This document shows, piece after piece, positions 2,474 to 63,580 of a stretch of 64,000 nucleotides of DNA (the first letter of the stretch is position 1; the number at the start of each line of letters is the position of its first letter). Below the pieces are notes generated by a model. That model saw nothing but the letters and a program-made list of their open reading frames with translations, was not told the DNA's origin and did no database searches. A program made the position numbers and the translations under genes. Source of the stretch: Naegleria gruberi (lineage: Eukaryota); NCBI GenBank assembly GCA_000004985.1, contig GG738899.1; one strand, written 5' to 3'.

Positions 2474-4807
2474 TTACCATAATCCAAAGCTAAAGACGTC
2501 TCGGTTGAGTATAGATGATGAGGTGTTTTGATTTGAATCCTCTGGGGTGGGCGTGTCTTCATCTACTTTGTGGATTCCAGAGAGAAAATCTTTTACACTA
2601 TGAAGTGAGAGTGTTCTCCTGTTATTGTTTGATTTTTCTGATTCACTTGAGGAAGTGCTGCTATCTTGTTGATGTTGTGAACGGTGGTCATCTTTGGAAT
2701 CTTTGGTTCCAAGAAATATTCCTTTCACTGATTTACCAACACTCAGTAATTGTCTATGTATCTCAATAACTGGATGGATTTTTACACTCCTCTGTTGGCC
2801 AAATATATCTTTTTTGAGGTTTAGTAGAGTTCTCACAAGTTTTTCAGAGTCAGGTCTATCTTTAGGTTCTAGAGAGAGCATTGATATGATGAGATTGGCA
2901 AATCCTTCATGATATTTGCTACACCGTTTTCTGATCAGCCCGTGGAATTGTTGTTGATCTTTCATGGCCATAATGTATGGTGAAAAATTGAGGATTTCAC
3001 ATCCAACAAGCTCTAGAAAAACTATTCCCATTGACCATATATCAGAGGAGTAAATATAATTCATGAATAAAGATGTAGGGGCTATTGGTTCCTTAGAATC
3101 CAACTCTGTTATATCTTTAACACCAATATGACACTCTGGTGATTGATATTTGATAGTACCTGCACTTGAGATTGTATCATTCAAATTTTTAGAGGTTAAT
3201 GATCTCAAATTATAAATTAAACCAAAATCTCCAATTTTACATTCTTTGAATTTTGAACTGAGTAAAATGTTCTTTGGTTTTATATCTCTGTGAAGAAGCC
3301 CATTCAAATGAAGATGATTTAGACCGGCAGACATTTGAATCATCAGAGACAGCAGGTGAGCCTCTTGAATTGTTTGGCCTTGATCTTTGTGTCCATTAAT
3401 GAATTGTTCTAAATCTCCATCATCCATGTATTCCATTACTAGACAGAGTGTAAATAGTGATGAGAATTCATTGTCTGATTTTGAAAAGTAAATGTCCTGT
3501 ATAGATATTAATTGAGGATAGCTGATTTTTCTGATTGGCCAAAATTCAACGAGGGCATCATTTGCATTATTGATATCGTCACAATTAATTTTCTTAATAC
3601 CAACTGTTACTCTATCGGATTTTCTTACAGCTTTGTACACTTTACCAAAAGATCCTCTTCCGACTTCTTCCAGAATTTCATAATGACTCTCTTCATACAG
3701 ATTTTCACTATTATTTTGTGGTAGATCAAAATTGCTGTCACATATGCTTGTCAGTTTTTCAGATGATGGTTTCTTCTTAAGGCCGGATAATATGAACGAG
3801 TCATCAAATGAAATTGTTTCGTAATCATGTAAGCTCTCTAAAGAATTATTTGGTGATATGTGGTGCTTCACACCCTCGAATTTTTGTGGTAATATTAATT
3901 TCATTCCTATTGTAACAACTCCTGTTTTATCTTTACCTCGTTTCAGAGATAGTTCAATCATATCCACAGATCTAGATCTAAAATCCATCAATCTGTTAAT
4001 ATCATACACAGCCTCTCCAATAAAGTTAACATGAGGTTTACATTTCATTATATAGTTGTGAAGCATTTCTGAAGTGGCAGAAATGTTATCCAATTGCATA
4101 GCAATTTGTGGTAGAATTTTCTTCGACTCCAACGATGAAGAATGTTCAAATACATAATGTGATTCATTACTATTATTACTAGCTGAATTGCAAATGGTCA
4201 TAACTTGTTGATATTCTGCCTCTGATAATTGGATTGGTAATATAACCTTCTCTCCTTTCCATTTGAATGTAAATCCATCAGAGAGAGGTGATTTTCTAAT
4301 TCGAGATGAATGGGCTACTACTTGTTTATATTCATCACCTAATAATTCTTCTTGTTCATCACTTCTTTTTACACTAAATGTTAAACAAGTATCAAATATC
4401 GAAGCACTAAAGTATTGAGTAAAACTCAAATCACTTGCAAGTGTTACAGTTCCAATACTAAATTCAATTCCAATATGATTCGGAGGTAAAATTAATGGTT
4501 GTTTGTTATTTTCCTCGATATCTTCTTCATCAGAATGATTATATTTATCACTAATTAAATTATCATTTTCCGTAATTAAATTATGTAACATTTCACTAAA
4601 TGATTTCCTTCTCGGATGTTCTTGTTGCTGTACTTTGAGAGTATTGTTATTATTATTCTGTACATTTGATTTTTCCTTGTTTCGATCATTACTATTATTA
4701 TTATTACTATCGGAAGATGATTGTGGTGGTGTAGTCGTTGGTGTTGGTGAGGAGGTTGATGAACTCTTGTCCAATCCCATAAACGACCTGAATCCACCAA
4801 AGAACAT
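2474..4807 (-). CDS. Ser/Thr protein kinase (777 aa) with a large N-terminal non-kinase region and a C-terminal kinase domain.
   Basis: Kinase subdomain motifs are present: GRGSFGKVYKAVRK...VGIKKI (Gly-loop and VAIK-like Lys), HRDIKPKNILL (catalytic loop), DFGL (DFG) and SDIWSMGIVFLEL (subdomain IX). Single uninterrupted ORF. Confidence 0.8.
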   Translation of the reverse strand: MFFGGFRSFMGLDKSSSTSSPTPTTTPPQSSSDSNNNNSNDRNKEKSNVQNNNNNTLKVQQQEHPRRKSFSEMLHNLITENDNLISDKYNHSDEEDIEENNKQPLILPPNHIGIEFSIGTVTLASDLSFTQYFSASIFDTCLTFSVKRSDEQEELLGDEYKQVVAHSSRIRKSPLSDGFTFKWKGEKVILPIQLSEAEYQQVMTICNSASNNSNESHYVFEHSSSLESKKILPQIAMQLDNISATSEMLHNYIMKCKPHVNFIGEAVYDINRLMDFRSRSVDMIELSLKRGKDKTGVVTIGMKLILPQKFEGVKHHISPNNSLESLHDYETISFDDSFILSGLKKKPSSEKLTSICDSNFDLPQNNSENLYEESHYEILEEVGRGSFGKVYKAVRKSDRVTVGIKKINCDDINNANDALVEFWPIRKISYPQLISIQDIYFSKSDNEFSSLFTLCLVMEYMDDGDLEQFINGHKDQGQTIQEAHLLSLMIQMSAGLNHLHLNGLLHRDIKPKNILLSSKFKECKIGDFGLIYNLRSLTSKNLNDTISSAGTIKYQSPECHIGVKDITELDSKEPIAPTSLFMNYIYSSDIWSMGIVFLELVGCEILNFSPYIMAMKDQQQFHGLIRKRCSKYHEGFANLIISMLSLEPKDRPDSEKLVRTLLNLKKDIFGQQRSVKIHPVIEIHRQLLSVGKSVKGIFLGTKDSKDDHRSQHQQDSSTSSSESEKSNNNRRTLSLHSVKDFLSGIHKVDEDTPTPEDSNQNTSSSILNRDVFSFGLW

Positions 4808-5013
4808 TTTTTATTCTTAAAATTAGCTGAGAAATGAACTTGTAGGTTTATCAGAAATGAATTGGATGATCTTGTTTAAATTGGATATATTTCTCTATGC
4901 AGTTGATCGAAATGTTCAGGCAACGTTTTCAATTCAATATTGAAAATGAATTACAAAATTCTTTATTATTTATTGATAATTTATTGAGCCGAAAGTTAAT
5001 GGTTTCGACTGCC

Positions 5014-5775
5014 TTAGTAGAAGAGTTTATTTGCAACAACATATTGTTCAGTGCTATTTGGTGCATATCCTAGATTACCTCCTTCGAATAAAATTTGGAA
5101 AGCAGCAATAGTTGCATCAAAATCAGAATTCAATTCTGAAACAACTTCATGAAATGAAATGCCTGGTTTCTTAGCAACAAGTTCATAGATAGACACTTCC
5201 AGAGTTTTTTGTTGTTGAACTTTTGGCACTTTCTTCCCTACAAGTGAACCATATTGAGAATGCAGAGATGCAACAATTACGTCCAATAAGTGAGTGGTAA
5301 ATTCATTGATATCCATAATTAGTGATAAACCTGTACCAACAATATATCTTGTTCCAGTTCTATTATCAATATTCAAAATACCATAAATTCTCAAAAAGAG
5401 TCCATTTTCAATAACACCACCACAAGCTTCAAACTTTTTCTCAGTATCAATTGCGTACAAAATTACGCTCATCCTTCCTGTACCATCATCAAGGAATAAA
5501 TTTAATTTTCGTTTCTCGGGTTCATTAGTAAATTTTACAATTTGTGCAACAAGAGTAACTTGTTCAATTCTTTTCTTCTTTGTCTTGCAGTCAATGACGA
5601 AATGATTGGTTTCTGGCATTTCGGCATGGATTAATTGTCTAATATTTACAGGTGTAATACCTCCTTTCTCGGAAGCACTTTCACTACTATTTACATGTGA
5701 TGTGTTATGTACCATGGATTGATCTACATCTTCACCACCATGCACATCACTTCCTCTAAAATCATGATCATCCAT
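5014..5775 (-). CDS. RPA2: Replication protein A 32-kDa subunit (RPA2)-like protein: S-rich N-terminus, OB fold, C-terminal winged helix.
   Basis: TPVNIRQLIHA...VTLVAQIVK...LFLDDGTGRMSVILY...ENGLFLRIYGILN follows the RPA32 OB-fold pattern (TPV.I.Q...V.iVG.i...lDDgTG.i). The C-terminal VSIYELVAKKPGISFHEVVSELN resembles the RPA32 wH domain. Confidence 0.6.
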   Translation of the reverse strand: MDDHDFRGSDVHGGEDVDQSMVHNTSHVNSSESASEKGGITPVNIRQLIHAEMPETNHFVIDCKTKKKRIEQVTLVAQIVKFTNEPEKRKLNLFLDDGTGRMSVILYAIDTEKKFEACGGVIENGLFLRIYGILNIDNRTGTRYIVGTGLSLIMDINEFTTHLLDVIVASLHSQYGSLVGKKVPKVQQQKTLEVSIYELVAKKPGISFHEVVSELNSDFDATIAAFQILFEGGNLGYAPNSTEQYVVANKLFY

Positions 5776-5939
5776 CTTGATTGCTGGGTATTTTTTTAAA
5801 TATTTGATGTTCTAAATTTAATGTTTTTCTATTCTTCTAAAAAATAGAAACAAAATTTCTAGTTTTATCTGGAAGACAAAAAACTATTGATTCATTACAG
5901 AAAATATGTCAAGTTAAATTAATAGTAATTACAATTAGT

Positions 5940-8653: not shown

Positions 8654-10275
8654 TTACTCATTATGATTAGATGCACCATCTAGAAGAGATTCATTAATAC
8701 GATTGTTTTGAGATTCCACATTTCTCTTATTGGAAGAATCACTCAATTTTCCACATCTGAAACAAGATTGATAACAAATTTTCAATTCATCCAAACTAAA
8801 TTCCATATATAACAAGCCACTGACCACAATAAATAAAATAAAATTCAGAATGGCACCAATAATTGGTTCAGTAAATTCAGCTCCAGTGTTCTGAGATTCT
8901 TGAACCAGATAAATTATTACCATTAATATAAAACATGGAAATACAATGGAAACAAATATCAAAAAGTTGGCATACTAAAATTGTTAATTATTTCCATATA
9001 TATATTTAACTCACCCCAGTGTTCCAAATATTAATATCTGATACTTTTTTCATAGCTCTAGCGATAATTAATCCAACAATTAAAAATACTTTTTCATTAT
9101 TGTTATGATTTACTTTCTAAAAAAGTATTACTTACTAAATATAGATAATAACAACCAAAGTGCAATAAATATTTTGACATATTGAAAAGCAAATGACTGA
9201 ATAATAGCTATTGATACAATCCCTAATACTGAGAATATAATTGGTATAGCATAAATCAATATACTATAAATGGTTTTTCTCTTATTGACAACGCCAAAAC
9301 TATTCGTGACCAATTTCCTAACCAGGAGAATAAAGCCAAAAATAAGAAAATATGAAAATAATCTGACACTATTACCACAATGGTTCTCTGGTAATTCTCA
9401 AATCTAAGGATGTATCTATACAAATAAGTTCCAAATTCACTACAAATCCTAAAAGTAATATATAAAATAGTAATAATTGGATATAAGGATCTTAATTTGA
9501 CACACTGAATGAGTTTAGGAATGAAAACTAAGAAGAATGCAATAATTAATTGACCAAATGTCAATATTATTGAAATGATACCAACTGCAAAAGTGAGATA
9601 TTGCTTATTTGGAGAATAAAAACATTTTTCAAAGAATGCACTGTCATTAATAGAGCAAGCACAAAAGTATGAAAATGGATATCTCAAAATTCCATTCACA
9701 TTTGATTGATTAAATAAAAAAGGAAATCCAAAAATACTGTCTCCACAATAAAGCAATCTTGTTGGAAAATAATTAATCATCTCATGTAACATAACCAAAT
9801 TAGGATTACATTCTTCTCGTTTCACCATTTTCCTATAAATTAAACTGTTATTTCCACAATATTGACATGCATTAATCCATTCCTCTGCTGAACTATCCAA
9901 TCTTCTCATCATATCAAGAGTAGCAGCATTTGCATTACACAACACTTCAAAGCAAGTTTGATTTAAAGTTTTTTCTAATTTTCCAATTTTTTCACAAATA
10001 TTAATTCTCGGAGATTGATAAATTAATTTGGTTGATTCGGAATCAATGGTTGGTCCTTTGGTTATTACTAGAGAGACATTGCTGGTGTATGAAACATCGA
10101 GACAATTGAAATTATTTGGAAGAAACTGATCTAAATCATATTTCGGAAAGAGAAACATTCGCCAAACGTTTTCAATTGTGCAGTTGGAGAAGAATACTTT
10201 CTCTGAACCATGGACTGTCAGATGGCAGGAAATGAGAAGGAATGCCGAGAGGATAAAGAGATACCTTGTTGACAT
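8654..10275 (-). CDS. Seven-transmembrane receptor-like membrane protein with a signal peptide and a Cys-rich ~190-aa N-terminal ectodomain. Proposed exons 9311..10275, 9136..9263, 9015..9088, 8654..8974, with introns of 47, 47 and 40 bp.
   Basis: MSTRYLFILSAFLLISCHLTVHG (signal), many Cys in the ectodomain, then 7 hydrophobic helices spread across ORFs 9256..10275, 9128..9313 and 8654..8962. Those ORFs lie in different frames and can only be joined by short GT..AG introns. The first donor (GTCACG) is weak, so the exon model is tentative. Confidence 0.45.
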
Positions 10276-15603: not shown

Positions 15604-15675
15604 TCCCGTGTAGTCCAATGGCTAGGATACCTGGCTTTCACCCAGGAGGTCCGGGTTCAATTACCGGCATGGGAG
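15604..15675 (+). tRNA. tRNA-Glu (anticodon UUC), 72 nt.
   Basis: Acceptor stem TCCCGTG/CATGGGA (one G-U pair). Anticodon stem CCTGG/CCAGG with loop CTTTCAC (TTC). T arm CCGGG-TTCAATT-ACCGG, which has an A where the stem-closing C61 is expected. The anticodon position is anchored by ORF 15459..15641. Overall close to eukaryotic tRNA-Glu(UUC). Confidence 0.65.
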
Positions 15676-15792: not shown

Positions 15793-16332
15793 TTAAATAT
15801 TGGATTCAAATACTCGTCTCTTCTCTAGTTTTGCCTTTCCGAATTCAATCACATATCCCACAGATTTAATCTGATTCAACAACAACAAGACAAACGACAT
15901 TGAATTCAAAATAAGATGGGAGGTGCCAGCAAAAGGACCAAGATAAAAACAAGAATGCACAAAAGCAACAAAATTAACAAGGCTGTACATAAACATTCCA
16001 AGTGGATCTCTGGTTGCCATCGAATAAAAACCACATGCAACTCCAGCCATAGATAACAAGAGGATCCATACCGGTTGGGAGGTGTTAAACAAAAACAATA
16101 CTGACAATACAAAAATTAAGAACAGTTGGAATGAAAACATATTTGCCAAGTTTGCCAAATTAGCTGGTCTGTTGTATTGCTTTTTCTGTACCACTTCAAT
16201 AAATTGTTCAATGTACTTTGCGAACATATCATAGAGTGGAGTTTCGCTGTGGTTAGTGGTATTGTTATTCATTTCTCCAATAGGTGCTGAAGGTGATGCT
16301 TCCAATGTTTGATGAGCTTCGGAATTGTTCAT
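15793..16332 (-). CDS. Hypothetical small multi-pass membrane protein (179 aa).
   Basis: ATG ORF with an N-rich N-terminus and 3-4 hydrophobic helices (FQLFLIFVLSVLFLF, VWILLLSMAGVACGFY, LVNFVAFVHSCFYLGPFA, MSFVLLLL). No family motif recognised. Confidence 0.4.
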   Translation of the reverse strand: MNNSEAHQTLEASPSAPIGEMNNNTTNHSETPLYDMFAKYIEQFIEVVQKKQYNRPANLANLANMFSFQLFLIFVLSVLFLFNTSQPVWILLLSMAGVACGFYSMATRDPLGMFMYSLVNFVAFVHSCFYLGPFAGTSHLILNSMSFVLLLLNQIKSVGYVIEFGKAKLEKRRVFESNI

Positions 16333-16647
16333 TTGTTTTTTAATAGAGATGTGTTCTTTACTGCAACGTGTTTTTTATGTGACATAATTATATCTTCCTT
16401 TTCAAAAGTCTCCGCTTCACTAAATTACAGTTGCTTTTCAAGCTTATTCGTCATGTCAACTATTTTCTTAAGCTTAACATTCTCTGGTTGTGTTATATTA
16501 TTGTAACGTGGTAATGAAAGCTAGTCTATTGCTCATTCATATCCTGTGTTTAGCTGTTTATTAGAGAGTCAACCAATTCCTTAATAGCTTCAATGCTACC
16601 AAGTTATCGTTGATGATATATTAGAACACGATTAGTTTTTGAACAAA

Positions 16648-16657
16648 ACACGTGTTT
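16648..16657. promoter_or_regulatory. ACACGTGT (E-box/G-box-like palindrome) promoter-proximal motif, copy 1; about 80 bp upstream of the SPFH gene ATG. A second partial copy AACAAAACGTGTT lies 20 bp downstream.
   Basis: AACACGTGTTTC. The same core recurs at 43464..43472 and 63334..63343, in each case 30-80 bp upstream of an ATG. Confidence 0.35.
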
Positions 16658-16734
16658 CTGAAATTGGAACAAAACGTGTTATTGGGTTCTTTAAAGTTCA
16701 ACAGCAGCAATTTTGATTTCAACAACAATAAAAA

Positions 16735-17775
16735 ATGTCACAAGAACTTGTAGCCTTGGAAGCAGCCTATCAATACATCTATTTATTCGGAGGAGGTATT
16801 TTAGCCTTCATTGTATTGAGAATTATATTGAATTGTATAATAACAGTCTCAACGAATGAAGTTGTTCTAGTTGAATATTTGGGAAAGTATTCGAGAACAT
16901 TAACGAGTGGTTTTCATATTCTTCTTCCGTTTGTAGAATCAGTGAAGGAAGTAACTTGGATAAGAACCATTGAAGATACTCTAACAAGAAGAACTAAATT
17001 GAGTACAGTTAGAACAGGTAGAATTTCAACATCAGAAGTAATGTTTGATTTTCCTGCATTGGATGTCAGTACAAAGGATAGAATTATTGCCAAAGTCAAT
17101 GGTATTATGTTTTTCAAAATTGTTAATCCATATAAGGCAGTTTATGAAATTTCTGATTTGTATCAATCGATGGAACAATTAGTTTATACTTCAATGAGAG
17201 ATGCCATTTCAAAGATTACACTCGATGAAGCTATTGAAGGTAAATCTACAATCAAAGCTTCTATTCATGAAGATTTTAAAGGATTGGAAAATTCTTGGGG
17301 AGTTAAATTGACCAAATTTGATATTCAATCAATTGAAGCTCCAGAATCTATTCAAAAGAGTATTGAGAAATTAGTTTCAGCCCAAAGAGAAGCCCAAGCC
17401 GAATTGGAAAAAACACGTGCCTTACAAGAAGCTAAAAAGCTCAAAATTCAAACAGAACAAGAAATTCAATTACTGGAATGTGACGCCAAGAATAAGCGAA
17501 ACATTATGGAAGCCAACACTGAAGCACAAGTTTTGAAAGCAAAGGCAGAATCAGAAGCTATGAATATTGAAAAGATGGCAAAAGCTGAAGCTATCTATTT
17601 GGAAAAAATTCTTTCAGTTAAAGGTATTTCACAAGAATATTTACTTCAAAAGGAATACACCAAGTCAATTGAGCATTTAGCAAAGTCAGGAAATAGAACA
17701 TTTATAATTCCATTCGAAAGTGCAAAATATTTTGGCATGAACAATGTTTCCTCTCTTCAAGAAGTTCAACAATAA
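16735..17775 (+). CDS. SPFH/band-7 domain protein (stomatin/prohibitin/HflK-like) with an N-terminal TM anchor and a C-terminal coiled coil.
   Basis: N-terminal hydrophobic anchor, then the SPFH core (VVLVEYLGKYSRTLTSGFHILLPFVESV...IMFFKIVNPYKAVYEISD...) and an A/E/K-rich coiled coil. Confidence 0.7.
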   Translation: MSQELVALEAAYQYIYLFGGGILAFIVLRIILNCIITVSTNEVVLVEYLGKYSRTLTSGFHILLPFVESVKEVTWIRTIEDTLTRRTKLSTVRTGRISTSEVMFDFPALDVSTKDRIIAKVNGIMFFKIVNPYKAVYEISDLYQSMEQLVYTSMRDAISKITLDEAIEGKSTIKASIHEDFKGLENSWGVKLTKFDIQSIEAPESIQKSIEKLVSAQREAQAELEKTRALQEAKKLKIQTEQEIQLLECDAKNKRNIMEANTEAQVLKAKAESEAMNIEKMAKAEAIYLEKILSVKGISQEYLLQKEYTKSIEHLAKSGNRTFIIPFESAKYFGMNNVSSLQEVQQ

Positions 17776-18138: not shown

Positions 18139-21100
18139 ATGCCAGAAGTAATTACCAGCAGCACTGTTGGTAGAACAGCTTTCGGTCCCAACCTTTCCTT
18201 GTTGAAGGTAAGTTATTACTCATTTACATCTCGCAGTAATTTTTTTTTGACTTTCTAATAACAAACAAACTAAGAACTTCAAAATGAACATGTTGAAAAT
18301 AATATATAGGGTGGTACAATCTCTCAAACAATTGTTGGTTTAATAGTTTCTGCTTCTGTTGTTGCCTCTCTCGTTGTTACCATTGTAATGATTAGTGTTG
18401 GTGCAGGTGTTCAAAATCCAACATTGAAACCAGACTATTATGAACTTTACAAAAAGACACCATCAAAACTCTATCCTCTTCTCAATGATATTGATCCAAG
18501 AGGTGGTAATTTGACAATTTTAAATGTTACTCAACCATTACATGGTAAAGCTGTGTTATCTTCTGCTGGCATGGTTATTTATACAAGTATTGGTTCTTAT
18601 GCTGGTAATGATACTTTCGAATATTCGGTTACTAATGGATGGACAACTGCGACTGAACATGTTTATCTTAGTATTTTGAATCGTGCTCCAGAAGTAGTTG
18701 ACATGACATATACTGTTAATAAGAATTCAAAGAAAAATTCATTTGATTTATTTGGATATGAAAGTGAAATGGGTGCTAAAATTAAGGATATTGACGGTGA
18801 TGATTTATCTATTACTGACATTATTCTAGTTTCTCCTAATGTTGGTAGTTTAATCTCATTCGATCAAAATTACTTGTACTATACTCCTGCTTATGGTTTT
18901 AATAATATTGAATTACTTAACTATACAATCTCAGATGGTTATGCCAATGTTTCAGGTGTCATTACTATTAATGTTGCCAATGATAAACCAACAGCTGAAC
19001 CTGACACTTATACCATTACAAAGAATGCTTTGGGTACTTTTAATATTCTAGATAATGATTTTGATATTAATGGTGATAACATTTCAATTACCACTGCTGG
19101 TTTAGGTTCATCTGGTGTTGTTTTAATTTCCTCTGATAATTCAAATATCGAATATATTCCAAAGCCATTTGTAGCTCCATATACTGATGCTTTTGAATAT
19201 GAAATCACTGATGGAGCTTTGACAAGTTCTAGTTATGTTTTTGTAAAGATTGTCAATTCTCCTCCAACTGTTTCTGATAAGGTTTTCAATGTTGCAAAGA
19301 ATTCAAAGAATAATCTTTTAGATTTGACATTCTCTGATCCAGATGTACTTGATACTGTTACCTTGACAGCTGTTAGTAAGCTTGCTCGTGGTAATTCCTC
19401 ATTGTCTGTTACTAGCTCAATGGCATCTGTTTATTATCCAACAGGTGACTTTTTACAAGTTAAGAAGAATTTGTACTCTCTTGTTTATACACCAGATCAA
19501 GGTGTTATTTATACTGATTCCTTTAAGGTCAAAGTTAGTGATGGTGTGGATGTTGCTTATGCCACCATTACTATTAATGTAGTTCCTTCTCCTCCTGTTC
19601 CTGTTAATGATACTGTCACTTGTCAAAAGAATGGACAAGTCTCTCTTGATGTTATCAGTAATGATTATAGTGCTTCTGGTGATGTTTTGAAATTGAATTT
19701 TGCATCATCTACTTCCAATTTTGGTGGTAAACTTGTTAAGATTGATGATAATAATGTAAAATATGAGCCAGCTAAAGGATTCCTTGGTCAAGATGAAGCT
19801 CAATACATTGTTATTAACACTAACACTGATGGATCTAGTGAAGGTACTTTCAATAGAGAGGGATATGTTCTTGTTAATGTTGTGAACTCACCTCCAGTTG
19901 CTGTTCCATTAACTTTGACAGTTTCAAAGGGTTTGACAAGTGCTCTTAATTTATTAAGAGATAGTTATGATCCAAATGGTGATTCTATTAATTATAATAG
20001 TATTGCTAAGAGTACTTATGGAGTTTCATTGTCCTTCACTTCTGGTAATGCAAATGTTAATTATGCTGCCTTGTCATCTGTCTACGTTGATTATGTTGAC
20101 TTTACTGTTGTTGATATTGATGGAGCTATTTCACAAGTTGCTACAGCTACCATTAACGTTGTTAATGATGCTCCTGTTCCAGTTGATGATACTGCTGCTG
20201 TTTCTTGGAATAGAAGTATTGTCATTGATGTTTTGGCAAATGACAAGGATGTTAATGGTGATTCTCTAAGTGTTAAGAGTGTTAGTTATACTTCTAATAA
20301 TGGTGCAACTGTTACTGTTCATCAAGGTGGTAAAACTGTTCTCTACACTCCAAAGGATGGATTTGTAGGAAATGATACCTTCTCCTATGTTTGTTTTGAT
20401 GGAATTGATTCATCTGTCACTTCTGGATTGGTGACAGTTGTTGTTAGTAATACTGCTCCATCTACTTCTCCAGTTACTGTTAGTGTTCATTGGAGAGATT
20501 CTTCAGTTATTATTCCAGTATTGACCTATGCCAGTGATATTGATGGTGATTCTCTTCATGTTGAATCTTTCACACAAGGATCAAAGGGATCTGTTTCACG
20601 TGTTACACTTACTGATGGTACAGATGGTTTGCAATTTACTACTTCTGGGTCAAATAACTATGTTGGAAGTGATTCTTTTACTTTTGTTGTTAGTGATTAT
20701 GGTAAATCAAGTGTTGGAAGTGTCAACATTCAAATTACTGACACTGCTCCTGTTGCCAATGCTGATTCATTCTCAATGCATTGGAGATCAACTGATAATG
20801 TTTTATCTGTTCTTGCTAATGATGTCGATGCTAATATTGATCCAATTACTGTCAAATCATTTACTAAACCACAAGGTTTTACTGGAACACTTGTCAATGT
20901 TAATTCTCATTTGACATTTACACCAAGTGCTTCAAGTGTTGGTACTCAAACATTTACTTACACTGCTACTGATGGTCCATCAACAAGTAATGATGCTACT
21001 GTCACATTAACTGTTACCAATAAGGATATTCCACAAGATAAGACAATTTCCAAGACTGTTCACTGGTCAACTCAATCAACTGGTACTACTATTACCATTT

Positions 21101-24100
21101 TCTCAAGTGCCAATCCAGTTGATACTGATGGTGATTCATTGAGTATTTCTTCTACTCTTGTTTCTCCTTCAAGTGGTTCAATTACAATTTCCAATTCTGA
21201 TATTCCAAGTGTTGTTTACAAACAAAATACTGGATTCCTTGGAACTGATACTTTCAAGATTCAAATCTCTGATGGTGCTGCTACTGCTATTGTTACCATT
21301 TCTGTTACTGTTTATGATAATGCTCCATTGTCTAATGATATTTCTGAAAATAGACATTTTACTGAAGTTAGTAATGGATATACTAAGAATGCAATTTCAT
21401 TCTTCAATGTTACTGATATCGATTCTCAAGATAGTGTCACTGTTAAGGATGCTACTGTTGGATCTTGTGGTTCTGTCTCAAAGACTTCTTCAACTGTCAC
21501 ATTCACAAGTAATAAGGGAAGTGTTGGTGTTTGTACTGTAACTATCACATTTACTGATGGTCTATTGAATTCTGTATCCAAGTGGAATGTCAATGTTCAA
21601 AATCAAGATCCTTCTGCCGCACCAATTAGCACTACCGTTCACTGGAGTAAGAGTCAAGCTATTATTGACATTATGTCAACTTTGTCTGATGCTGATAATG
21701 ATGCCTTGTCTTATTCAGTTTCATCTTATGATTCCACATTCGGTAGCCCATCTATCAATTCTGATAAGGCTCTCGTATGGACTCTTCCACAAACACCAAA
21801 ATTAGGAACAACTCAAATTGTAATTTCATTCACAGATGGATGGGTCAGTAAGACTGCTTCTTATCCATTGATTGTTCAAAACGTTGCACCAACTGCAGTT
21901 GCAAAGACAATTTCATCAAAGTGGTCTGCATGTCTTTCTGGTATTACTATTGATATTTTGAGTGAATGCTCAGATAATGACGGAGATAGTTTGTCATTTG
22001 ACAGTACTACGCCAATTGTTACTGCTCCAGCTCAAGGAAGTGCTTCAATTGTTTCTTCAAAGGTTTATTACAAACAATCAACTGCTTCTGTTGGTTCTTA
22101 TTCCATTACTTACAAGATTACTGATGGTATTCAAACTTCATCAAACTCTATTACTGTCAATTGTGAAGATAATGCTCCTGTTGCTAATGCTGATTCAATT
22201 ACTGTTAATTGGAATACCTCTGATGTCGATATTACTATTTTGTCTAACGATATTGATTCAGATAATGATATTCTTTCTGTCACTAATCTTTCAGCTGTCA
22301 GTGAAGGTTCTTTAACTAATTTAGGTACTTTTGTTAAATATACTTTGAAGAAACCACCAACCCTTTCTGACAAGACATTCACCTATAAGGCATTCGACGG
22401 AGCTCTCTATTCCTCTGCTGCAACTGTCACTGTCAAAGTTGTCAATGCCAACAAGCCACAAATTAGTGATCAAAGTACAACTGCTCACTGGAGAACTGTC
22501 AAGGATGGTGTTTCATACACTGTCTATGATACTCTTACCGATGCTGATGGTGATTATTATTCACTTTCATTTGGTAGTGGTTCAAGTGCTTATTGTTCAC
22601 TTATTGACCTTTCGAATGGTATTAAGGGTGTTAAATATACTAGAAATGCATTCGATTCCACTGATTCTTGTAAAGTAGTTCTCTCTGATGGATTCAGTAC
22701 AAGTGCTGCCACATTAACAACCAACTCTTACAATAATGTTCCAGTTGCTGCCAACTTTACTTTAGATTATTCTGGTGGTAATATTCAATATGGTATTTCA
22801 ATTGATGTTTTGTCATCTGCTACAGATGCTGATATTCAAGATGTTCCATTCCTTTCCATTTTAAGTGTTGGAAATTCCAAATTATATGGTAGTGAAGCTG
22901 CAAATATTGTAAATGGACAAGTTTTCTATTTCCCAGATCAATCATTAGTTAAAGCATTGGGTACTGATACTGTTGCTTATACTATTAGTGATGGTTTATC
23001 AACATCTATTGGTTATCTCACTATTAACATCAAGTCAACTTCTCCATCCAGTACTGAACAATATTACAATGTTCATTTTAGATATTCAAGTGTTGGTTAT
23101 GTTTTCACACCATTGACAAAGATTGCAGATGCCACTAAACTTGATACTACTGTTGTTCAAGGAAGTGAACCAAATCAAGGTGGTTCAGTTGTTGTTTCTA
23201 GTGTTGATGAAAAGACAGTTACTTACAAACCATCTGGTTCCTATTTAGGTAATGAAATTTTCAAGTTAAAGTATTATACTGCTAGTGGTAGTAGTGATAT
23301 TACTTTTACAATGAATATTTATGATACTGCTCCAATTGCTCAATCACTTTCTGGTTCAGTTCATTTTGGTAAATCAACAACATTCAATTTAACTGCTTCA
23401 ACTTCAGATGCTGATCCATTGGATGTCAATAATTTGTCATTCTCAATTACTGGTCAACCATCTCAAGGATCTTTGAGTGTTTCATCAAATATTGCCACTT
23501 ATACTGCATCATCAACTGTTGGAACCTATTCTGGTATTTACAGAGTTTCAGATTCTATGAAATCTTCTACTGGTTCTATTACTTTGACTGTAACTAATAC
23601 TGTTCCTACTTCACAAACTAAAACCATTTCAGTTCCTTGGAGAACTTTCAAGGCAGGTTTTAATATTGATGTCTTGAATTTAGCACCAGCTGATTTTGAT
23701 AATGATGGAGATGAGTTGAGTTTGGTTTCAATTGCTCTTCAACCATCAGTTGGTTCAGTAACTAAATTGGATAGTAAGAGAGTTAGTATTGTTGGTTCAG
23801 GAAACTTTGTTGGTTCACTTACATTCAAATACATTGTTAGTGATGGTGCCTCAAATGGTCAAGTCACAACCACAGTTAACTTGAATGTTTACAACACTGC
23901 TCCAGTTGGTATTCCAGATAAGCTCTCTACCCACTGGAATGTTGCCTCAAAGACATTGAATGTTATTGCCAATGACACTGATGCTGAATCAGATCCTTTA
24001 ACTGTCACATCCGTTTATGGATCTTTAGCTTCAACTGCTCCAACTTTCACTTCTGATAGTATTGTCTATTATCCAAAGAATGCTCCATCAACAGATACAG

Positions 24101-27100
24101 TTTATTATACAGTTTCTGATAATGTTGCTACATCTATTTCATATGTCACTGTTACTGTAACTAACACTGCTCCAACTACAACTTCTCAATCATTTGTTGG
24201 TTCTTGGTCTTCAGCTAAGAATGGTTTAACATTTGACGTTGTTTCTACTTCTTCTGATGCTAATGGAGATTCATTGTCATTGCAATCATGCTCTTCATCA
24301 GTTACTTCCTCTCAAGGTAATGTCACTTGTTCTGGAAATGTCAAATTCACTCCAGCCAGTGGTTTCGTTGGTAGTATCAACCCAATCAGTTATATTATCA
24401 CTGATGGTAGAGACACTGTCACTGGTACTGTTTCCATTACAATTTTGAATAATGCTCCTACTGCTAATACTACAAATACTTTCAGATATCATTGGAGAAG
24501 TGTTTTGAGTAATACTGTTATTGATCTTTCTTCATATCTCAAAGATGCTGATGGTGATGCTGTTACTTTGACAGCTGTCACAAAGACACTTGTTGGTGTT
24601 GCTTCTCTTGGATCAGGAAATACCATTAACTATAAGGTTAATAGTGCTTACACTGGTACTGATTCAGTCACTGTCTCATTCACTGATGGATGGTCAACTT
24701 CAAGTGCCACTTTCAATATTGTAATTTACAATAACGCTCCTGTTGCTCAAAATATCATTACTTCAACTCACTTGGCAACTTTGAACATTCCTGTGATTGG
24801 ATCTGGTTCAAATCAACCAACAGATGCTGATGGAAGTGTTGATCTTAATAATTTAGTCATTTCTTCATTCTCAAATCCATCAGTTGGAAGTGTTTCTTTG
24901 AGTGGTGATAAGAAATCATTCACATTCACTAACGTTGCTGGAAATGTTGCCACTCAAACATTTACCTATGTCGTTTCAGATGGAAAGGATACTTCTGCAT
25001 CAAAGACTGTTACAATTTCCATTACAAACAATGCACCATCTGCAACTCCAATTACCATTTCTAAACATTGGGCTACAGTACAAGGTGGATTAGATATTAA
25101 TTTATTGTCTGTTGTAACTGATTCTGATGGTGATTCTCTTTCAATTACTTCATTCACTCAAACAAATAATGGAGCTGTTTCTTCAATCAATTCAACATCT
25201 GTCAAGTATATTCCAACACCATTGACTGCTGGTTTCACAACTTCATTCACCTATTCAGTTTATGATGGTTATACTACAATTTCAAATACTGTTACAATTT
25301 CAATTACCAATACACCACCTGTTGCAGTTGATGATACCATCACTGTTCACTGGACCAATAATACATTGTATTTGAAACCAGTTGTGAATGATTATGATTT
25401 GGATAATGATTACATTTATATTAACAAATTGTATCCATCTCAATTTATGAATGCCTATGCATCAATGGGTAATTATATCATCATTTCAAAGGGAACAACT
25501 ATTGTTAATAACTTTGCAAGTGTTGTCGTTCCTGGAAGCGTTGCAACTGCTGGATTTGTTAATCAAGTTCTTCAACCAACTGGCTCACTAAATGTTAATA
25601 ATGCTGCTCAACTTGCCATTGTTAATGCTGCTACTAATTTGTATCAATCATTGAGTTTATATACTTGTACTGCTTCATTAGATCAATCATTCCCATCTTC
25701 AAATGTTTTGAGTTTCTCACCTGGTGTCTATTGTTTCCCACAAGGTTTATCTGGTTCTGGTACCATCTTGTTGAGTGGTTCAGGTCTTTACATTTTCAGT
25801 ATTTCCACTAATTTGAATGCTAACTTCCAATGGTCATTCACAAATGGAGCTAGTGCTTCAAATGTTTATTGGTTGGTTGGTGCTGCTGGTATTTCAGGAA
25901 CTTTCTATGGTCATGTTTTGAGTAATGGTCAACTCAATTTCAATAATGTTGTTCAAAATGGTGTTATTATGAGTTTAGGATCAAATTCAATGAGTTTGAA
26001 TAGTGTTACTTTTGGTTCCGTTGTTATTCCAACTGGACAAACTGCCTTGGAATTACAATCTGACAAGTTGACTGTCTATTATAAGAATACTTTCATTAAT
26101 GGACCAGCAACTGACTCATTCCAATACACAATTACTGATCAAATTGCCACTTCTAATGTTGCTATTGTCAAATTGGTCTTTACCAATACTGCTCCAGTTG
26201 CCACTTCATTCTCAGCTGGTAAAGTTACATGGAAAAATACCTTAACAACTGCAAGTGTTGTTTCCAAGTATTGTTCTGATGCTGATAAGGATTCATTGAG
26301 TTTATTCGGAGTTACTCAAGGTAAATACGGAACTACTACAGTTACCGATTCTACAAGTGGTACCATTGTTTATACACCAAGTAGTTCAATTTCCTATACC
26401 TCTGTTGATTCCAATGGAGCTAGTTATGTAACTGATCAAATTACTTTTGGATGTTATGATGGAGCTCAAGTTACATATAACACATTCTCTGTTGTCGTTT
26501 ACAATACAGCTCCAAAGAGTGCTTCTAAATCACTTAGTGTTCAAAGAGATACTTCAAATCCAACTGTTACATTGAATGATTTGTTGGTTGGTGCTACAGA
26601 TGCTGAGGGTGATTCAATTTCTGTATCAAGTGTTTCAATGATTTCACAAAATACTGGTGCTTCTGTCTTGTTATCATCCAATACTGCTAAACTCACTTAC
26701 ATAACTTCATATTTAGGTTCAATTGTCTTTTCATTCACTTTAACTGATGGTCAATTGAGTTCAACTTATAATTATAATGTCACTATTACTGGTGCTCCAT
26801 TCTATTGTGTTGATTATACCATTAGTACTACCAAAGATTCCTCTGCTGTCACTTTCGAAACTGATTTAAAGTCTAAATTGTCAAGCTATTGTGTTAATGA
26901 TGTTTGTACTTTGGCTCTTGCTTCAACTGCATCACTCAATGGAGTTGGTTCAATTGCTGCCAATGGTAATAACTTGTTGACATATACTCAAAATTCCAAG
27001 TCATCATCAAATGGAGAATCCTATTCCACTTACTCATATTCTAATAGGGCAGGTCAAAGCGCAATTTGTAAGATTATCATTAATCAACCAAATAATGCAC

Positions 27101-29412
27101 CAACTGTCTATGATTATACTTATAGTTACTCAATTAGTAGAGCTTCTAATGATTATGTTACATTTGATTATGTTAGTTTATCATCCTCTGATGATCCAGA
27201 TGCTTCTGACTCAATTGTATTGAGTAGTATTTCAAGTGTTGGTACATGTACAACTAGTTCTATCAGTAGTTTGTCAATTACTAGTGATAACCAAATCAAA
27301 TTCTTGAGAAATCCATCATTCATTGGAAGTTGTTCATTCTCTTTGGTTGTTTCTGATAGTGATTTGAGAAATCCAATCTCTAAAACTGCAAAAATTACAA
27401 TCAATGCCATTTCTTCTCCACCAGTTGCTGTCAATGATGCTGTTTCTACAACCTATAACACATATATTGATATTCCAGTTTCCACATTACTTGGAAACGA
27501 TTATGATTCACTTGGTGGTACATTCTCATTCACTGGTATTAATTGCCCAACAGGTGATTCAACTTATTGTACAGCAGGCACTCCAACTATTCTCAATCCA
27601 TCTGATCCTGCAAATACAAGAATCATCAGAGTTCAACCAATTAAGGGATCTTGTAATTCTCAAAAATTCGTTTATGGTATCAAATCTGATTCTGATTCAA
27701 CAACTGCCACAGCTATTGTTACAGTTTCTTATACCAAATGTACATGTTCTTTGAATATGGATATTGTATTTGTTTTGGATGGTAGTTCATCTATTGATGC
27801 AGGAAATTGGATTAACATGCAAAACTTTGCATCCAATTTAACTGTTGGATTTGGTTCAAACATTTCACCAACTGCCACCAAGATTGGTATCATTCAATTC
27901 TCTACAACAACTGTAACTCACTTGGATTTGAAAGATGGTACTTCCAAGACAGCTGTTCTTAATGCCATTTCATCAGCTGGTCAACTCAAATCCAGTACCA
28001 ACTCAATTTTAGGTATTAACAATGCTGTTTCAATGGTTTTAAGTCAAGGTAGAAAGGATATCACTAGAAAACTCTTAATTCACATTACAGATGGTATGTC
28101 CAATTTACCTTGTGGTATGGGAGCTTGTCGTGCCATGTATGGTAGTGATAAGTCATTATATGGATCTGTTCCTAATTATTGTAAGTCACCTCGTTTCCCA
28201 GGTACTGATGCAACAATATGCTCATGGAATGAACCACTCAGTAGATGTAATCCTTGTTCTGATGCTACTCTTAGATCAACTGATTTGAATTCTTGGACAG
28301 TTGGAGGTGCTTCAAATCCAGAAAAATCAACTTATGGATCTATTTGGAATTGGAGACAATTAGTTGTAGGTATTGGTGATGGTTTGAGTTCTGGGTATGG
28401 ACAACTTCAAATTCAAAAGATGAATTACGATCCAAACAATTTAATTGTTGTCGATTGGTCTGATTTGAGCTCTGTTTATCAAACTGTTATTGATAATAGT
28501 TGTAATCTTGTCGATTCCACTCAAACCAACGTTCTTGTTCCACTTTCAAGTTCTGGATATTCTATTCAATATCTTGGAAAGACATTGTCCAAATCAAGTT
28601 ACCTTAATTATGAAGCAACCATTTCAACATTCACTTATCGTGTTAGTGTCTCTTCATCAGCACCTGCTTTACAAAGATTTACCTTAGGATTACAACCTGG
28701 TTACAATCAAGATAACTTTGTAAATTATGATCCATACTTCCCAGTTTTCATTGGTCAAGACACTACCACTAATTTGAATGGTTTCACTTTCTTATCACTT
28801 CCAAATTCATATACAATTGCAGCTGGTTCATCAGATACCTATACATTGAGTATTGCTGGTGATATTCCTGAAGGTGTTATTACTTATGGTATGTCGGGTG
28901 GTTCACAATACACACAAGGAACTGTTAAGGGACCAAGTGGAGTGATCAACTCAACCACAGTTGCTCTTCCACCAAATATTAATTACGGTGATGATTCAAG
29001 TTATAGAACTACCTATTGTTCCTCAACCAAATGTTATTTCTTTACCAAGATGAATTATGCCTATCGTATTGAAGCAATGAGTAAGATTTGTAAATATTGG
29101 TCTGCCAATGCAACACTAGTTCAAATTCAATCATCCACTGAAAAGACCACACTCATCAATAATGTTTTACCTTACGATGAGAGTGCTACCTTCTTCTTAG
29201 GTACTAAGGATTCCGATATTGCAGTTGGATCAACAACTACATGGCAAGATGGTACATCCATGTCCTCCTATACAAATTATCAAAGCAAACAACCTGGTTC
29301 CTACACTATTATTTATGCTTCATATAATGCTAATTCTCCAACTGGTACTTGGTGGAAGGGAGGTAGTTATGATACCAACACTCAATATTTACTTTGTCAA
29401 TTTAAGAAATAA
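18139..29412 (+). CDS. Giant type-II membrane adhesin-like protein (~3,720 aa). Exon 1 18139..18207, intron 18208..18309, exon 2 18310..29412. Architecture: TM anchor, about 28 tandem cadherin-like Ca-binding repeats, a DUF3494 (ice-binding-like) beta-helix, vWA domain, C-type lectin domain.
   Basis: MPEVITSSTVGRTAFGPNLSLLK|GGTISQTIVGLIVSASVVASLVVTIVMISVG is the TM segment. It is followed by ~95-100-aa repeats, each ending V-x-N-x-A-P-(V/T)-A (VVNDAPVPVDD, VSNTAPSTSP, VYNTAPVGIPD, ITNNAPSATP...) and containing D-x-D-G-D-S-L. The DUF3494-like stretch is at ~25440..26070; vWA has DIVFVLDGSSSID (MIDAS); the CTLD has KCYFF...WQDG...QP...WWKGG...CQF. The single 11.1-kb ORF is anchored to ORF 18388..29412. 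Confidence 0.8.
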
Positions 29413-41002: not shown

Positions 41003-41022
41003 GTTCATATTCGAATATGAAC
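41003..41022. promoter_or_regulatory. 20-bp perfect palindrome GTTCATATTCGAATATGAAC about 130 bp upstream of the F-box gene ATG, inside a dyad-rich block (40990..41100).
   Basis: Self-complementary 20-mer. Flanked by the inverted pair TGCAACTTCAAATTGG / CAATTTGAAGTGCA. Confidence 0.4.
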
Positions 41023-43001: not shown

Positions 43002-43402
43002 TTATTTTGATTTCTTATCATTATTATTAGTATCTAATTCATCACTAATTGGAATATCACTTCTCCATTTAACAGCAGCTCTTTTATAGAATGGCCAAGG
43101 TGGAACAACAAATATCAAGGCTAAAACTATTCCTAACAGGAAAATTCCTAATGTAAATGAAAACCTTTCAAAATAAAATCCAACAATAAATCCTATTATC
43201 TATTTAAACGTAATTATTAATATTATTCAATTATTCGTGATGATCAATTTTGGTTCCGATGATGAATAAAATAATGATGATTTATAAATTGATTAATACA
43301 TCTATAATAATATATATATTGAAACATTACTGATGATGAAATTAATAAATATCTGTACACTGATTCGGCAAGACTTTGTCCTCTAAAATCGATTGAAGTC
43401 AT
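43002..43402 (-). CDS. SPCS1: Signal peptidase complex subunit 1 (SPCS1/Spc12), 2 exons: ~43360..43402 and ~43005..43200, with a ~160-bp intron; coordinates ±1-2 nt.
   Basis: MTSIDFRGQSLAES|IIGFIVGFYFERFSFTLGIFLLGIVLALIFVVPPWPFYKRAAVKWRSD... matches SPCS1 (DYKGQKLAEQ...GFIYGY...LTLPPWPIYRRHPLKW). The donor is GTGTAC, which is non-consensus. Confidence 0.55.
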
Positions 43403-43547
43403 TTTTTATTATTTGAATTTTATTATTACTACTTGGTTGACGACGTATTTTGTTTATCATCATACACGTGTTTTTATTTCGAAAATAATGACAATAGGTT
43501 TTATTACACTCTTACAACATTGATGATTTATTAGAAAAGCCTAATTG

Positions 43548-60470: not shown

Positions 60471-63259
60471 TAAAACTCTTTCATATTTGGATCTAACATA
60501 AAGTTTTCAACAATTGATAAAACTGAAGATCCTTTCTCAACTCGAGGAGATTCTATTGGTTTGGCTTTTTGATATAACAATTCTTCCAATCTCTTTGATG
60601 GTACATTCCTAACTGGTGTTTTCAATTGTGCTTGTTGGAATTGTTGTGAATAAGACATTGTCTGTTGTTGAGATTGTCTTATTGGATCTGATCTTGAAAC
60701 TTCCATTATTGGCTTTGGCCTTTCTGGTATTCTTTCTCGTTCTTGATTAAGTTTTTCTGTTGGAATTGGTGTAATTATTGGTCTAGGTCTTTCTGGTACC
60801 TTTTCTCTTTCTGTAATTCTTTCAGGTACCTTATCTATAGGTTGAGTAGGCTTAGAAATTATATTTTGTTGAGTTGATGCTCTATTAGAATATTGTGGTA
60901 CATAACCACCCATATTACTTGGATTTGTTTGATTTCTTACTATTGATTGAGGCTTAACTGGTGGTGGATTTTGAGGAGGTAAGGAAATTTCTTGTTGTTT
61001 TGGAATTGGTGTTGAAGATTGTCTTGTTAATCTTGGTGGAGGTTTGGAAACTATAAAGTTTGAAACATTATCTTGTTGAGGAGTTTCTTCATCTTCATGG
61101 ACATTTGGCTTATCTTTTGGAATTGGTGGTGGTTTAGATTTTACAGGTGAATCAATTTTAGAAATATTTGATGCATCTATTATTTCAGATGAATTTAAAA
61201 CTGGTTCATCTCTAATTGCTGTCTCTTCATTCTTCGATGTTACTAAAACAGGTTCAAAATTACCCTTATGTGGATTTGTTTTTTTATCCATTTGAATTTG
61301 ATCTTTAATTTTAGATTCAATTCTATTCAAATTATATGGAATACTGTAATGATATTATGTAAAAATTGTAATGAAAATATTTGAACATACCCAAATTTAG
61401 GTGGAACAGAAGAATGCCTAGTATTTGATTGTTTTTTCAAAGGTGTCTTTTTTGTAGGATCTTTCTTAGATGTTACTCCTTTCTTCTTTTTTGCAGGAGA
61501 TGCCATATTAGTTGACCATGCAATTGATTTTGGATTTTCTTCTTCTTGAATAATTGGTCCTTCTTCTATTGGAATTGTTAATTTTTGAGGTCTTGGTTTT
61601 GAGATTGGTACTTGCTCATTAATAATATCTGAATTTGCTCTTCCTCTAGGTGTTGTTACTTGAGAAGGTGTTTGACTATTTGAATAGGATGATGGAGGAG
61701 GTGAAATACTACTAGTAGCATTATAATTTATAATTTTGAATTGGATTTGATTGAATTGGAATTGCTGGTTGTTGGGATGGTTGCATGTAAACTTGTGATT
61801 GTTGAGGTGGAAAAGAAGATTGAGGAGGATTAATATGATGATGAATTACAGGTGAACTTAATGGATGACTTTGATAGGAAGGATAATGAACAAATGTTGG
61901 TTGGTGAGGAATAATTTGAGGTGAAAATGTTGGTGGATAGGCATGTTGAGTATTATTTGGATATGGAGGGTTGAAATAATCATGAACATTAGGTATTGCT
62001 TGTTGGTGATTTGGTGTATTGGAATAATAAGAAGGACGTTGCTGAGCATCATATTGAGGTTGTTGTCTCATTAATGTTGGTGAATCATCATATGAATTAT
62101 TGGAATAAGGATTGTTATTATAATTATTTTGTTGTTGCTGTTGTTGATAAGATGATCTATTGTTATTATTATTGGATTGTTGTCCCTTATTGGGTGATGA
62201 TGGTATCATATTATTAGGCTTTTCAGTCAAGTAATCACCTTCTCTATTATTATAATTTGAATACTGTTGTTGTTGATTATTGTTGTTTGATTGAAAATTA
62301 ACTCCTTGTCTTTCACCTTTTCGCCATCTAGAAGAAGGCTTGAATCTACTTTCATCATTTTCATAATTATCATCATACTCCTGTTGTTGTCTATTATATC
62401 CATTATTATTATTATTATTGAATCCAGTGTTATTATTATTATTGTATGACTGTCTTTGATCATAAGGTTGTTGAGGCTGTTGCTGTTGTGGTTGAGAATT
62501 GTTTGTATTGTGGAGTGATTCTATAATATATAAATTTGAATAAGACATCATCTCCGATATTAAATTAAAACATACCAGCAATATCTCTAATAACTTCCAG
62601 TGATGAATAAGGTCCATTTCTCTTATTGACTGTCCTAATTCCAATCAAGACAAGATATGCAATAATTTGATCCAATTCTTCGGAGAAGGNNNNNNNNNNN
62701 NNNNNNNNNNNNNNNNNNNNNNNNNNNNNNNNNNNNNNNGTAAATTTTTAAAACTAGTAAAACTCCAATTAATTATATTTTCAATTTGTTTGTTAATTAA
62801 TTCTAATTCATTTAAATTATTAATCATATCATTATCAATTGTAATTATTAAATGATTTGGAAATTTTATTTCATTTTCATCTTTAAATTCTAAATTATTA
62901 ACATTTATTGTTTTGGATTTAAATAATTTTATAATCATTAAATATATTAAATATATTAAATATAATATTAAATAAAGTGTATGTATTATATAATTAAGAA
63001 TTCTTCTAAATATATTATTACTATTATTACTAATATTATTACTATTATTATCAATTTTATCATAATTCAATGATGAGCCTAATGATGATGATGATGAGGC
63101 TTTTAAAGGTGGAGAAGGAGAAAGTGATTCCGTTGTAGTAGGTGATGATGATGATAACTTTCTTGTTGTTGATAATAATTCATCTTCCTCTTGTTTTATA
63201 TATTTCTTACTAGTCGTCAAGTTAGGCTGATGATGATGATGATTATTCTTGTTGGACAT
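60467..63259 (-). CDS. Q/N/P-rich low-complexity multi-exon gene. The terminal exon 60467..61343 is well defined (intron 61344..61390). Upstream Q/N-rich exons (61391..~62644) and the N-terminal exon (~62645..63259, interrupted by the 50-N gap 62690..62739) are tentative.
   Basis: GTATGT...ACAG intron joins ...SSVPPKFG|IPYNLNRIESKIKDQ... The C-terminal exon is Pro-rich (KPPPIPKDKP..., PPQNPPPVKP) and ends ...SKRLEELLYQKAKPIESPRVEKGSSVLSIVENFMLDPNMKEFY. Upstream frames (61721..62644 and 62645..63259) are open and Q/N-rich, but I could not fully reconcile their phases. Confidence 0.35.
62690..62739. other. Assembly gap (50 N).
   Basis: Run of n. Confidence 0.99.
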
Positions 63260-63580
63260 TTTTTTGCAAATTGAAATTTCGGAAATTTAAAACACGTAAA
63301 ATTCATTGAAGGCTTGAAAATTTAAACTCTTCGACACGTGTATGAAAAACAACTAGATTGTAAAGAGATCTCTTAATATTAAATATATTTAATGGATGAG
63401 AATTTCATGATAACATTTCTAATAAAAAATTAAATATAAAAAAATGAAAGTAATGAAATATGCTTCATTGTACGTTTCTTTTTTTAAAGGCTTTTTTATT
63501 CATCATCACTTTATCATCATCAAATAATCATCATAATCAACAACAACATGAACATTATCATATATACATCATCATCATCA

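Follow-up and report, generated by a model that had tools for sequence, protein, structure and literature searches.

A palindromic 8-mer upstream of a stomatin-like SPFH gene, conserved among Naegleria and other Heterolobosea

Close to the starts of three unrelated genes of Naegleria gruberi stands one and the same palindrome, ACACGTGT, which an earlier note on this DNA took for a shared cis-regulatory element. Is the palindrome a regulatory element at all, and if it is, do the three genes share it? The window (the whole stretch of 64,000 nucleotides of contig GG738899.1 that was analysed) holds 49,510 readable N. gruberi bases, with N runs at 43548-43598, 45164-59552 and 62690-62739; ∼70 kb of related loci were read for comparison.

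Genes and sites in the window

The gene layout in the window is compact, mostly with few introns. The genes next to the palindrome are as follows.

15793..16332, minus strand: divergent gene of a predicted multi-pass membrane protein, 179 aa, having a 402-bp intergenic region in common with the SPFH gene
16735..17775, plus strand: stomatin/QmcA/HflK-like SPFH (Band 7) gene, 346 aa (Pfam Band_7, E=3e-28; PDB QmcA 8z5g, E=7e-24)
43002..43402, minus strand: SPCS1 (signal peptidase complex subunit 1), 89 aa (Pfam SPC12, E=9e-22)
62645..63259, minus strand: first ORF of the third gene, a transmembrane protein, cut by the 50-N gap at 62690-62739

The SPFH product (346 aa) matches a predicted protein of N. 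gruberi with 100% identity, and the solved structures nearest to it are those of bacterial QmcA, archaeal and human stomatins and HflK; for the 179-aa protein no Pfam family was found. The SPCS1 gene is spliced from exon 1 (43331-43402) and exon 2 (43002-43199) around an intron at 43200-43330 (GT..AG), and its protein is 55% identical to SPCS1 of N. fowleri. A word-indexed search of the protein collection, made with a query carrying a 2-residue junction error, returned no self-match for SPCS1; as an error of this size should not block a self-match, SPCS1 may be absent from the public N. gruberi gene set.

The earlier note placed the third site upstream of a Q/N-rich gene. The site is there; the ORF adjoining it encodes the transmembrane protein, and the Q/N-rich part comes from a public 756-aa model, P0019, which joins Q/N/P-rich ORFs (60467-62644) to the 62645-63259 ORF across the 50-N gap. 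The latter ORF is homologous to a 352-aa N. fowleri protein (BLASTP E=5e-12), which has a hydrophobic segment and no Pfam family and is encoded as a stand-alone protein (positions 4716-5821 of locus L010; such codes are our handles for the loci compared). P0019 is probably a chimeric or gap-truncated model, and its join may have been produced by the gap. A query combining the third gene's N-terminus with the 179-aa protein and SPCS1 recovered only P0019, low-complexity words having filled the candidate list, and gave no orthologue of the 179-aa gene. For the third gene we also considered a Nus1/NgBR identity; Pfam and PDB sequence searches gave nothing for it.

Two other features of the window were seen in passing. 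A tRNA-Glu(TTC) gene lies at 15604-15675, between an RCC1-like gene and the 179-aa gene, and a 3674-aa ORF at 18388-29412 (plus strand) encodes many bacterial-type Ig/cadherin-like repeats (Big_9, Cadherin_4/5) and a VWA domain.

The full sites and the non-coding half-sites are listed below; distances to ATG codons are counted from the motif start, and no strand is assigned to the palindromes.

16648..16655: full palindromic site ACACGTGT, 87 bp 5′ of the SPFH ATG (16735)
43464..43471: full site ACACGTGT, 62 bp 5′ of the SPCS1 ATG (43402, minus strand)
63334..63341: full site ACACGTGT, 75 bp 5′ of the ATG at 63259 (minus strand)
16366..16371, plus strand: half-site ACGTGT in the context AACGTGTTTTTT (16365-16376), 34 bp 5′ of the ATG of the 179-aa gene
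16672..16679, plus strand: auxiliary half-site AAACGTGT, with ACGTGT at 16674-16679
63292-63299, minus strand: half-site ACACGTAA, which is TTACGTGT on the minus strand, with TACGTGT (ACACGTA on the plus strand) at 63292..63298, 33 bp 5′ of the ATG at 63259

All palindromes and half-sites given in the earlier note were borne out in position and sequence; the half-site at 16366-16371 had been overlooked. The site at 16648-16655 is the middle of a perfect 12-bp palindrome, AAACACGTGTTT, at 16646-16657. The remaining copies of ACGTGT in the window, two in number, are both coding (at 17413 and 20598).

All three exact copies of ACACGTGT are non-coding. In dinucleotide shuffles of the whole window 0.13 copies were expected, and none of 100 shuffles reached three; for the non-coding DNA (10.7 kb) order-1 and order-2 Markov models predicted 0.045, with Poisson p ∼1.4e-5. 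Among all 8-mers of the non-coding DNA ACACGTGT ranked 12th to 16th, after simple repeats; with trinucleotide repeats excluded, it was among the most over-represented 8-mers together with its overlapping extension AAACACGT (five copies versus 0.23 expected in non-coding DNA). The three full sites, as well as all three extra non-coding ACGTGT half-sites, fall 1-120 bp upstream of ATGs, a zone to which 5.2% of the readable bases belong (24% of the non-coding ones). Promoter-proximal positions are held by 3/3 copies of ACACGTGT in the window, and by 8/9 in the related loci. The assertion that three such copies are unlikely by chance agrees with these counts. The AT content of the intergenic DNA was overstated: it had been put at >85%, and the three motif-bearing regions measured 69%, 76% and 78-79%. 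One-mismatch variants of ACACGTGT were not enriched in the window (10 versus 10.3 expected); the enrichment signal is the exact palindrome plus a few clustered half-sites.

Simple repeats aside, the most over-represented non-repetitive 8-mer was a different one, TATTCGAA/TTCGAATA: eight non-coding copies (6813, 6969, 7215, 7374, 17968, 30978, 31764 and 41008-41017) versus 0.5-1.2 expected, along with coding copies at 5083, 18616 and 37138. One of its copies forms a 10-bp palindrome, TATTCGAATA, 142 bp 5′ of an F-box gene at 41150. This 8-mer could represent another cis-element or else a dispersed repeat.

The SPFH promoter in six taxa

Orthologous SPFH loci of N. lovaniensis, N. fowleri, Willaertia magna and two metagenomic contigs, L004 and L005, were compared with that of N. 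gruberi; the SPFH proteins of the two metagenomic heteroloboseans share 62% and 45% identity with that of N. gruberi. Metagenome scans with SPCS1 and with the SPFH alignment added nothing usable: in L008 the 5′ end is missing, and L009, a homologue at 27%, comes with no DNA 5′ of the gene. The protein alignment was used to reset the start codons of the orthologues. With these starts, the positions of ACACGTGT relative to the SPFH ATG are:

N. gruberi: -87
N. lovaniensis: -258 and -197
N. fowleri: -226 and -192
Willaertia magna: -77
L004 (metagenomic): -95 and -31
L005 (metagenomic): -100

Annotated SPFH starts appear to lie too far upstream in N. fowleri (by 49 codons, L002 4001-4147) and in L004 (by 27 codons, L004 5001-5081); the annotated start of L004 would put one copy of ACACGTGT within coding sequence.

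In an unbiased k-mer comparison of 300 bp upstream of each gene, ACACGTGT was the only 8-mer common to all six SPFH promoters, and none of 2000 order-1 Markov null sets had an 8-mer shared by all six. The six taxa should be counted as about five independent lineages, N. fowleri and N. lovaniensis being closely related. Another word, AACACGTGT, was found in five of the six promoters, and the remainder of the aligned promoter DNA had ∼43% column identity; the site has been kept while the DNA surrounding it diverged. Around the SPFH genes no further ACACGTGT was seen in 17.8 kb of N. lovaniensis and 21 kb of Willaertia.

What adjoins SPFH changes from one species to the next: N. gruberi has the 179-aa gene there, N. 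fowleri and N. lovaniensis have squalene synthase, and the other taxa have other genes. The motif thus goes with SPFH itself. In a tblastn comparison the 179-aa N. gruberi neighbour did not correspond to the 190-aa gene that lies 3′ of SPFH in N. lovaniensis and N. fowleri. The presence of squalene synthase next to SPFH in these two species prompted an SREBP-type reading of the motif; we rejected it, as the sites are >900 bp away from squalene synthase and this neighbour is not conserved.

Judged by the sequence comparison, ACACGTGT at SPFH is a real and deeply conserved cis-element, as expected of a functional cis-regulatory site, and SPFH is the only target gene for which the alignments indicate conservation of the motif across the species checked.

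The SPFH promoters of the three Naegleria species also have a second conserved block, AAAGTTC(A/C)A, located 3′ of the motif (window 16690-16706; L006 ∼9860-9875; L002 ∼3963-3975). In N. gruberi a TATA-like TTTAAA at ∼-45 overlaps the block, which may serve as a core-promoter or start-site element.

SPCS1 and the third gene

SPCS1 proteins of N. fowleri and Willaertia were retrieved by an exhaustive HMMER search with SPCS1 exon 2. Neither ACACGTGT nor ACGTGT nor CACGTG was present in the SPCS1 promoters of N. fowleri (165 bp, L010 2836-3000) and Willaertia (310 bp, L011 2691-3000), or in the N. fowleri promoter of the third-gene homologue (292 bp, L010 4424-4715). The sole ACACGTGT at this N. 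fowleri locus is coding: at L010 4891 it spells codons Tyr-Thr-Cys of the third-gene homologue. At SPCS1 and the third gene, then, no footprint was found in the relatives checked. With sites absent there, comparative support extends to one of the three genes, and the support for the SPCS1 and third-gene sites, unconserved as they are, is statistical only. As a proposal of a shared cis-regulatory element, the earlier note stands with respect to the conserved footprint at SPFH; it does not carry over to the SPCS1 and third-gene sites, which are missing from the relatives checked. A regulon shared by the three genes is partly supported, with the window statistics alone behind it.

One could argue that only the SPFH site is functional, the SPCS1 and third-gene copies being neutral products of chance or recent mutation, with no shared regulon in the window. 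The promoters of the relatives just described, free of ACGTGT and CACGTG, fit this explanation, as does the coding copy at L010 4891, which demonstrates that incidental copies exist; so does the lack of enrichment of one-mismatch variants. On the other hand, with the SPFH site excluded, two more exact copies remain in 10.7 kb of non-coding DNA, a Poisson probability of ∼1e-3 for an expectation of 0.045, and each of them lies within 120 bp 5′ of an ATG; the third-gene promoter carries a second ACGTGT half-site 42 bp away from the full one. Further, the orthologous proteins are only 55-65% identical, which makes turnover of binding sites plausible, and at such identity some loss of sites would be expected. 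We consider neutrality of the two copies unlikely, though it deserves to be taken seriously. We rather suppose that the copies at SPCS1 and the transmembrane gene are probably extra, lineage-specific targets in N. gruberi of the same factor that would act at SPFH. A survey of ∼33 other promoters in related species gave no copy of ACACGTGT; any regulon, hence, would be small.

Some observations on gene order are added here. SPCS1 and the third-gene homologue are 1.3 kb apart in N. fowleri (L010 3001-5821); in N. gruberi the two genes are ∼20 kb apart on one scaffold (43002-63259), with a 14.4-kb N gap between them. This suggests residual synteny of SPCS1 and the third gene between N. fowleri and N. 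gruberi. A second ORF, VWA-like by eye (43599-45163, plus strand), is divergent from SPCS1 and enters the large gap; the 51-N gap at 43548-43598 hides the start of this ORF and, with it, the full extent of the intergenic region in which the SPCS1 motif lies.

Anatomy of the element and its likely reader

The 8-bp palindrome is invariant in 11 of 11 full sites from six taxa, with the CACGTG core in all of them; the bases flanking the 8-mer have a weak preference, purine then A (RA), over two positions. Around this constant unit the arrangement changes. Pairs of ACACGTGT are 61 bp apart in N. lovaniensis, 34 bp in N. fowleri and 64 bp in L004, inverted and with outer flanks TTGRAAC; in N. fowleri the pair makes a perfect 14-nt inverted repeat, TTTGGAACACGTGT / ACACGTGTTCCAAA. 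The SPFH promoter of N. gruberi has instead a direct repeat with a 26-bp period, TTTGAACAAAACACGTGTT / TTGGAACAAAAC--GTGTT, the second copy being short of two bases, and the SPFH promoters of Willaertia and L005 have a single copy of ACACGTGT each.

Inverted arms such as these could in principle act at the level of RNA or single-stranded nucleic acid: the 5′ leader would fold into a hairpin through motif-containing arms of 13-19 nt, or an RNA-binding protein would recognise the 8-mer. The perfect 14-nt repeat of N. fowleri, with a 26-nt loop, and its imperfect versions in N. lovaniensis and L004 are what one would look for in this case; besides, the N. fowleri and N. lovaniensis sites, at 190-260 bp from the ATG, could be transcribed. 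However, the hairpin is not a conserved feature, given the single copies in Willaertia and L005 and the direct, not inverted, repeat in N. gruberi; a perfect palindrome points to a dimer bound to duplex DNA, and the N. gruberi site is upstream of the TATA-like TTTAAA. Action through RNA appears highly improbable to us. With spacing and orientation variable and the 8-mer alone constant, the pattern speaks for a protein that reads the duplex, and against hairpin formation as the conserved property.

We hold it probable that ACACGTGT is a transcription-factor binding site and an ancient proximal-promoter element of SPFH, with the SPCS1 and transmembrane-gene copies being, probably, lineage-specific targets. 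In such a mechanism a sequence-specific factor reading the ACGT core would bind ACACGTGT on double-stranded DNA; the factor would most likely be a homodimer, either bZIP (G-box/ABRE-type) or bHLH (E-box-type; bHLH-ZIP). The element would have served the stomatin-like SPFH gene since an early point in the history of Heterolobosea. The usual two sites, 24-64 bp apart, might provide for cooperative or higher-occupancy binding, and weaker hybrid sites nearby might raise occupancy further. Binding of the factor would then set the level or the inducibility of SPFH transcription. A perfect palindrome with an ACGT centre, proximal, often duplicated and deeply conserved, has the look that would be expected of a site for a dimeric basic-region factor.

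An assignment to bHLH or bZIP factors, as in the earlier note, is reasonable in view of the sequence. The half-sites bear further on the class of the factor. The auxiliary sites read AACGTGT, AACGTGT and TACGTGT: ACGTGT is kept in all three and CACGTG in none, so that a bZIP or CAMTA-type reader fits at least as well as bHLH. The CANNTG core of an E-box, in the form of CACGTG, is found in all 11 full sites, and the AACGTG and TACGTG of the auxiliary sites fall outside CANNTG. ACGTGT, the ACGT core with defined flanks of the G-box/ABRE type, is found in every full site and half-site.

As the half-sites preserve ACGTGT, a CAMTA CG-1 reader is a minority alternative. Here the recognised unit would be the hexamer ACGTGT, read by a CAMTA-type (CG-1) factor, and the palindrome would be two overlapping, opposed CG-1 sites. 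All three auxiliary sites, with ACGTGT and not CACGTG, agree with this, and CG-1 domains bind (A/C)CGTGT (PMC10417383), a consensus that is intact in every full and half-site. The element differs from a CAMTA element in that the entire 8-mer palindrome is conserved; a monomeric reader of a hexamer needs no palindrome, while the full palindrome is invariant in 11/11 sites, and no CGCG-type CAMTA boxes were noted adjoining the sites. We regard a CAMTA-type reader as improbable, and keep to a dimeric basic-region factor as the preferred one.

Several known elements are close to ACACGTGT. T...A flanks (TCACGTGA) are typical of USF, TFE or Cbf1 sites. With the class B E-box (USF, Max, TFE/MITF, fungal Cbf1 and Pho4; bHLH-ZIP) the Naegleria element has in common a palindromic, promoter-proximal CACGTG core, but its flanks are A...T. 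The canonical E-box CACGTG is read by both bHLH and bZIP factors (PMC9451156). Likeness to the plant G-box/ABRE/Z-box group (CACGTG, ACGTGT/G-C and ATACGTGT; HY5, GBFs, ABFs) goes further: the sequence is identical to the acACGTgt G-box of the HY5 bZIP, binding to which was detected by yeast one-hybrid and gel-shift assays (PMC11869179), ACGTGT is the ABRE core (PMC7762296), and the ACGT core, the palindrome, the proximal location, frequent multiple copies and weaker ACGT-containing partners are common to both. In contrast to the plant elements, the one described here belongs to Discoba, has a stomatin-like gene as a target with no light or ABA context, and is accompanied by a TTGRAA flank that is conserved only in SPFH promoters.

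The class of factor that we prefer is not the one reported to prevail in this genus. Zn2Cys6 factors typically read CGG triplets, which are absent from the element. The dominant factor family reported for Naegleria is Zn2Cys6 (C6 finger), and not bZIP/bHLH (PMC3537659).

A more specific proposal connects ACACGTGT with stress at membranes. It was noted above that SPCS1 is among the genes with a copy. Elements of the ER-stress response include yeast Hac1 UPRE-2 (TACGTGT), mammalian ERSE-II (ATTGG-N-CCACG) and plant P-UPRE. They have in common with our sites the ACGTG(T) core, and one of the targets here, SPCS1, is an ER gene; moreover, in the SPFH sites an (A/T)TTG(G/A) pentamer stands 3 nt before ACG, in the geometry of ATTGG-N-CC-ACG. 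Unlike in ERSE-II, this pentamer reads TTTGG or ATTGA in most cases and does not match the complement of CCAAT. An outright assignment to ERSE-II/UPRE (ATTGG-N-CCACG or TGACGTGG/TACGTGT) was rejected: the flank is TTTGG/ATTGA/TTGG, with ATTGG only at the second site of N. gruberi, the core is ACACG and not CCACG, and the SPCS1 orthologues lack the motif. Other ER-related genes of the window, those of a PI synthase-like protein, UFL1 and a thioredoxin-domain protein, have no copy. One could speculate that ACACGTGT plus a TTGGAA-type flank makes a membrane- or ER-stress response element ancestral to Heterolobosea, read by a Hac1/XBP1/bZIP60-like ACGT-core bZIP, with SPFH as the core target and SPCS1-type ER genes as lineage-specific recruits; to our knowledge, no such bZIP has been described in any Discoba, and we see this as quite improbable. 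If true, it would open a first way into the study of stress-responsive transcription in Naegleria, the pathogen N. fowleri included.

None of the literature searched described a CACGTG-type promoter element from Naegleria or from other Heterolobosea. As G-box/E-box elements are a familiar class, the result carries known biology into a deep-branching lineage and brings no new principle. An 8-bp site that Naegleria, Willaertia and two uncultured relatives have all kept 5′ of the same gene is a testable entry point into transcriptional regulation in Heterolobosea, N. fowleri among them; it could be used for finding the cognate factor, for defining the target set and for supplying regulated promoters to the still-limited genetic tools of Naegleria.

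CACGTG also occurs in Willaertia without the A...T flanks, in three copies of a repeat, GCCCCACGTGGGGCTCGAAC (L007 1215, 7250 and 9652), which is tRNA-like by eye.
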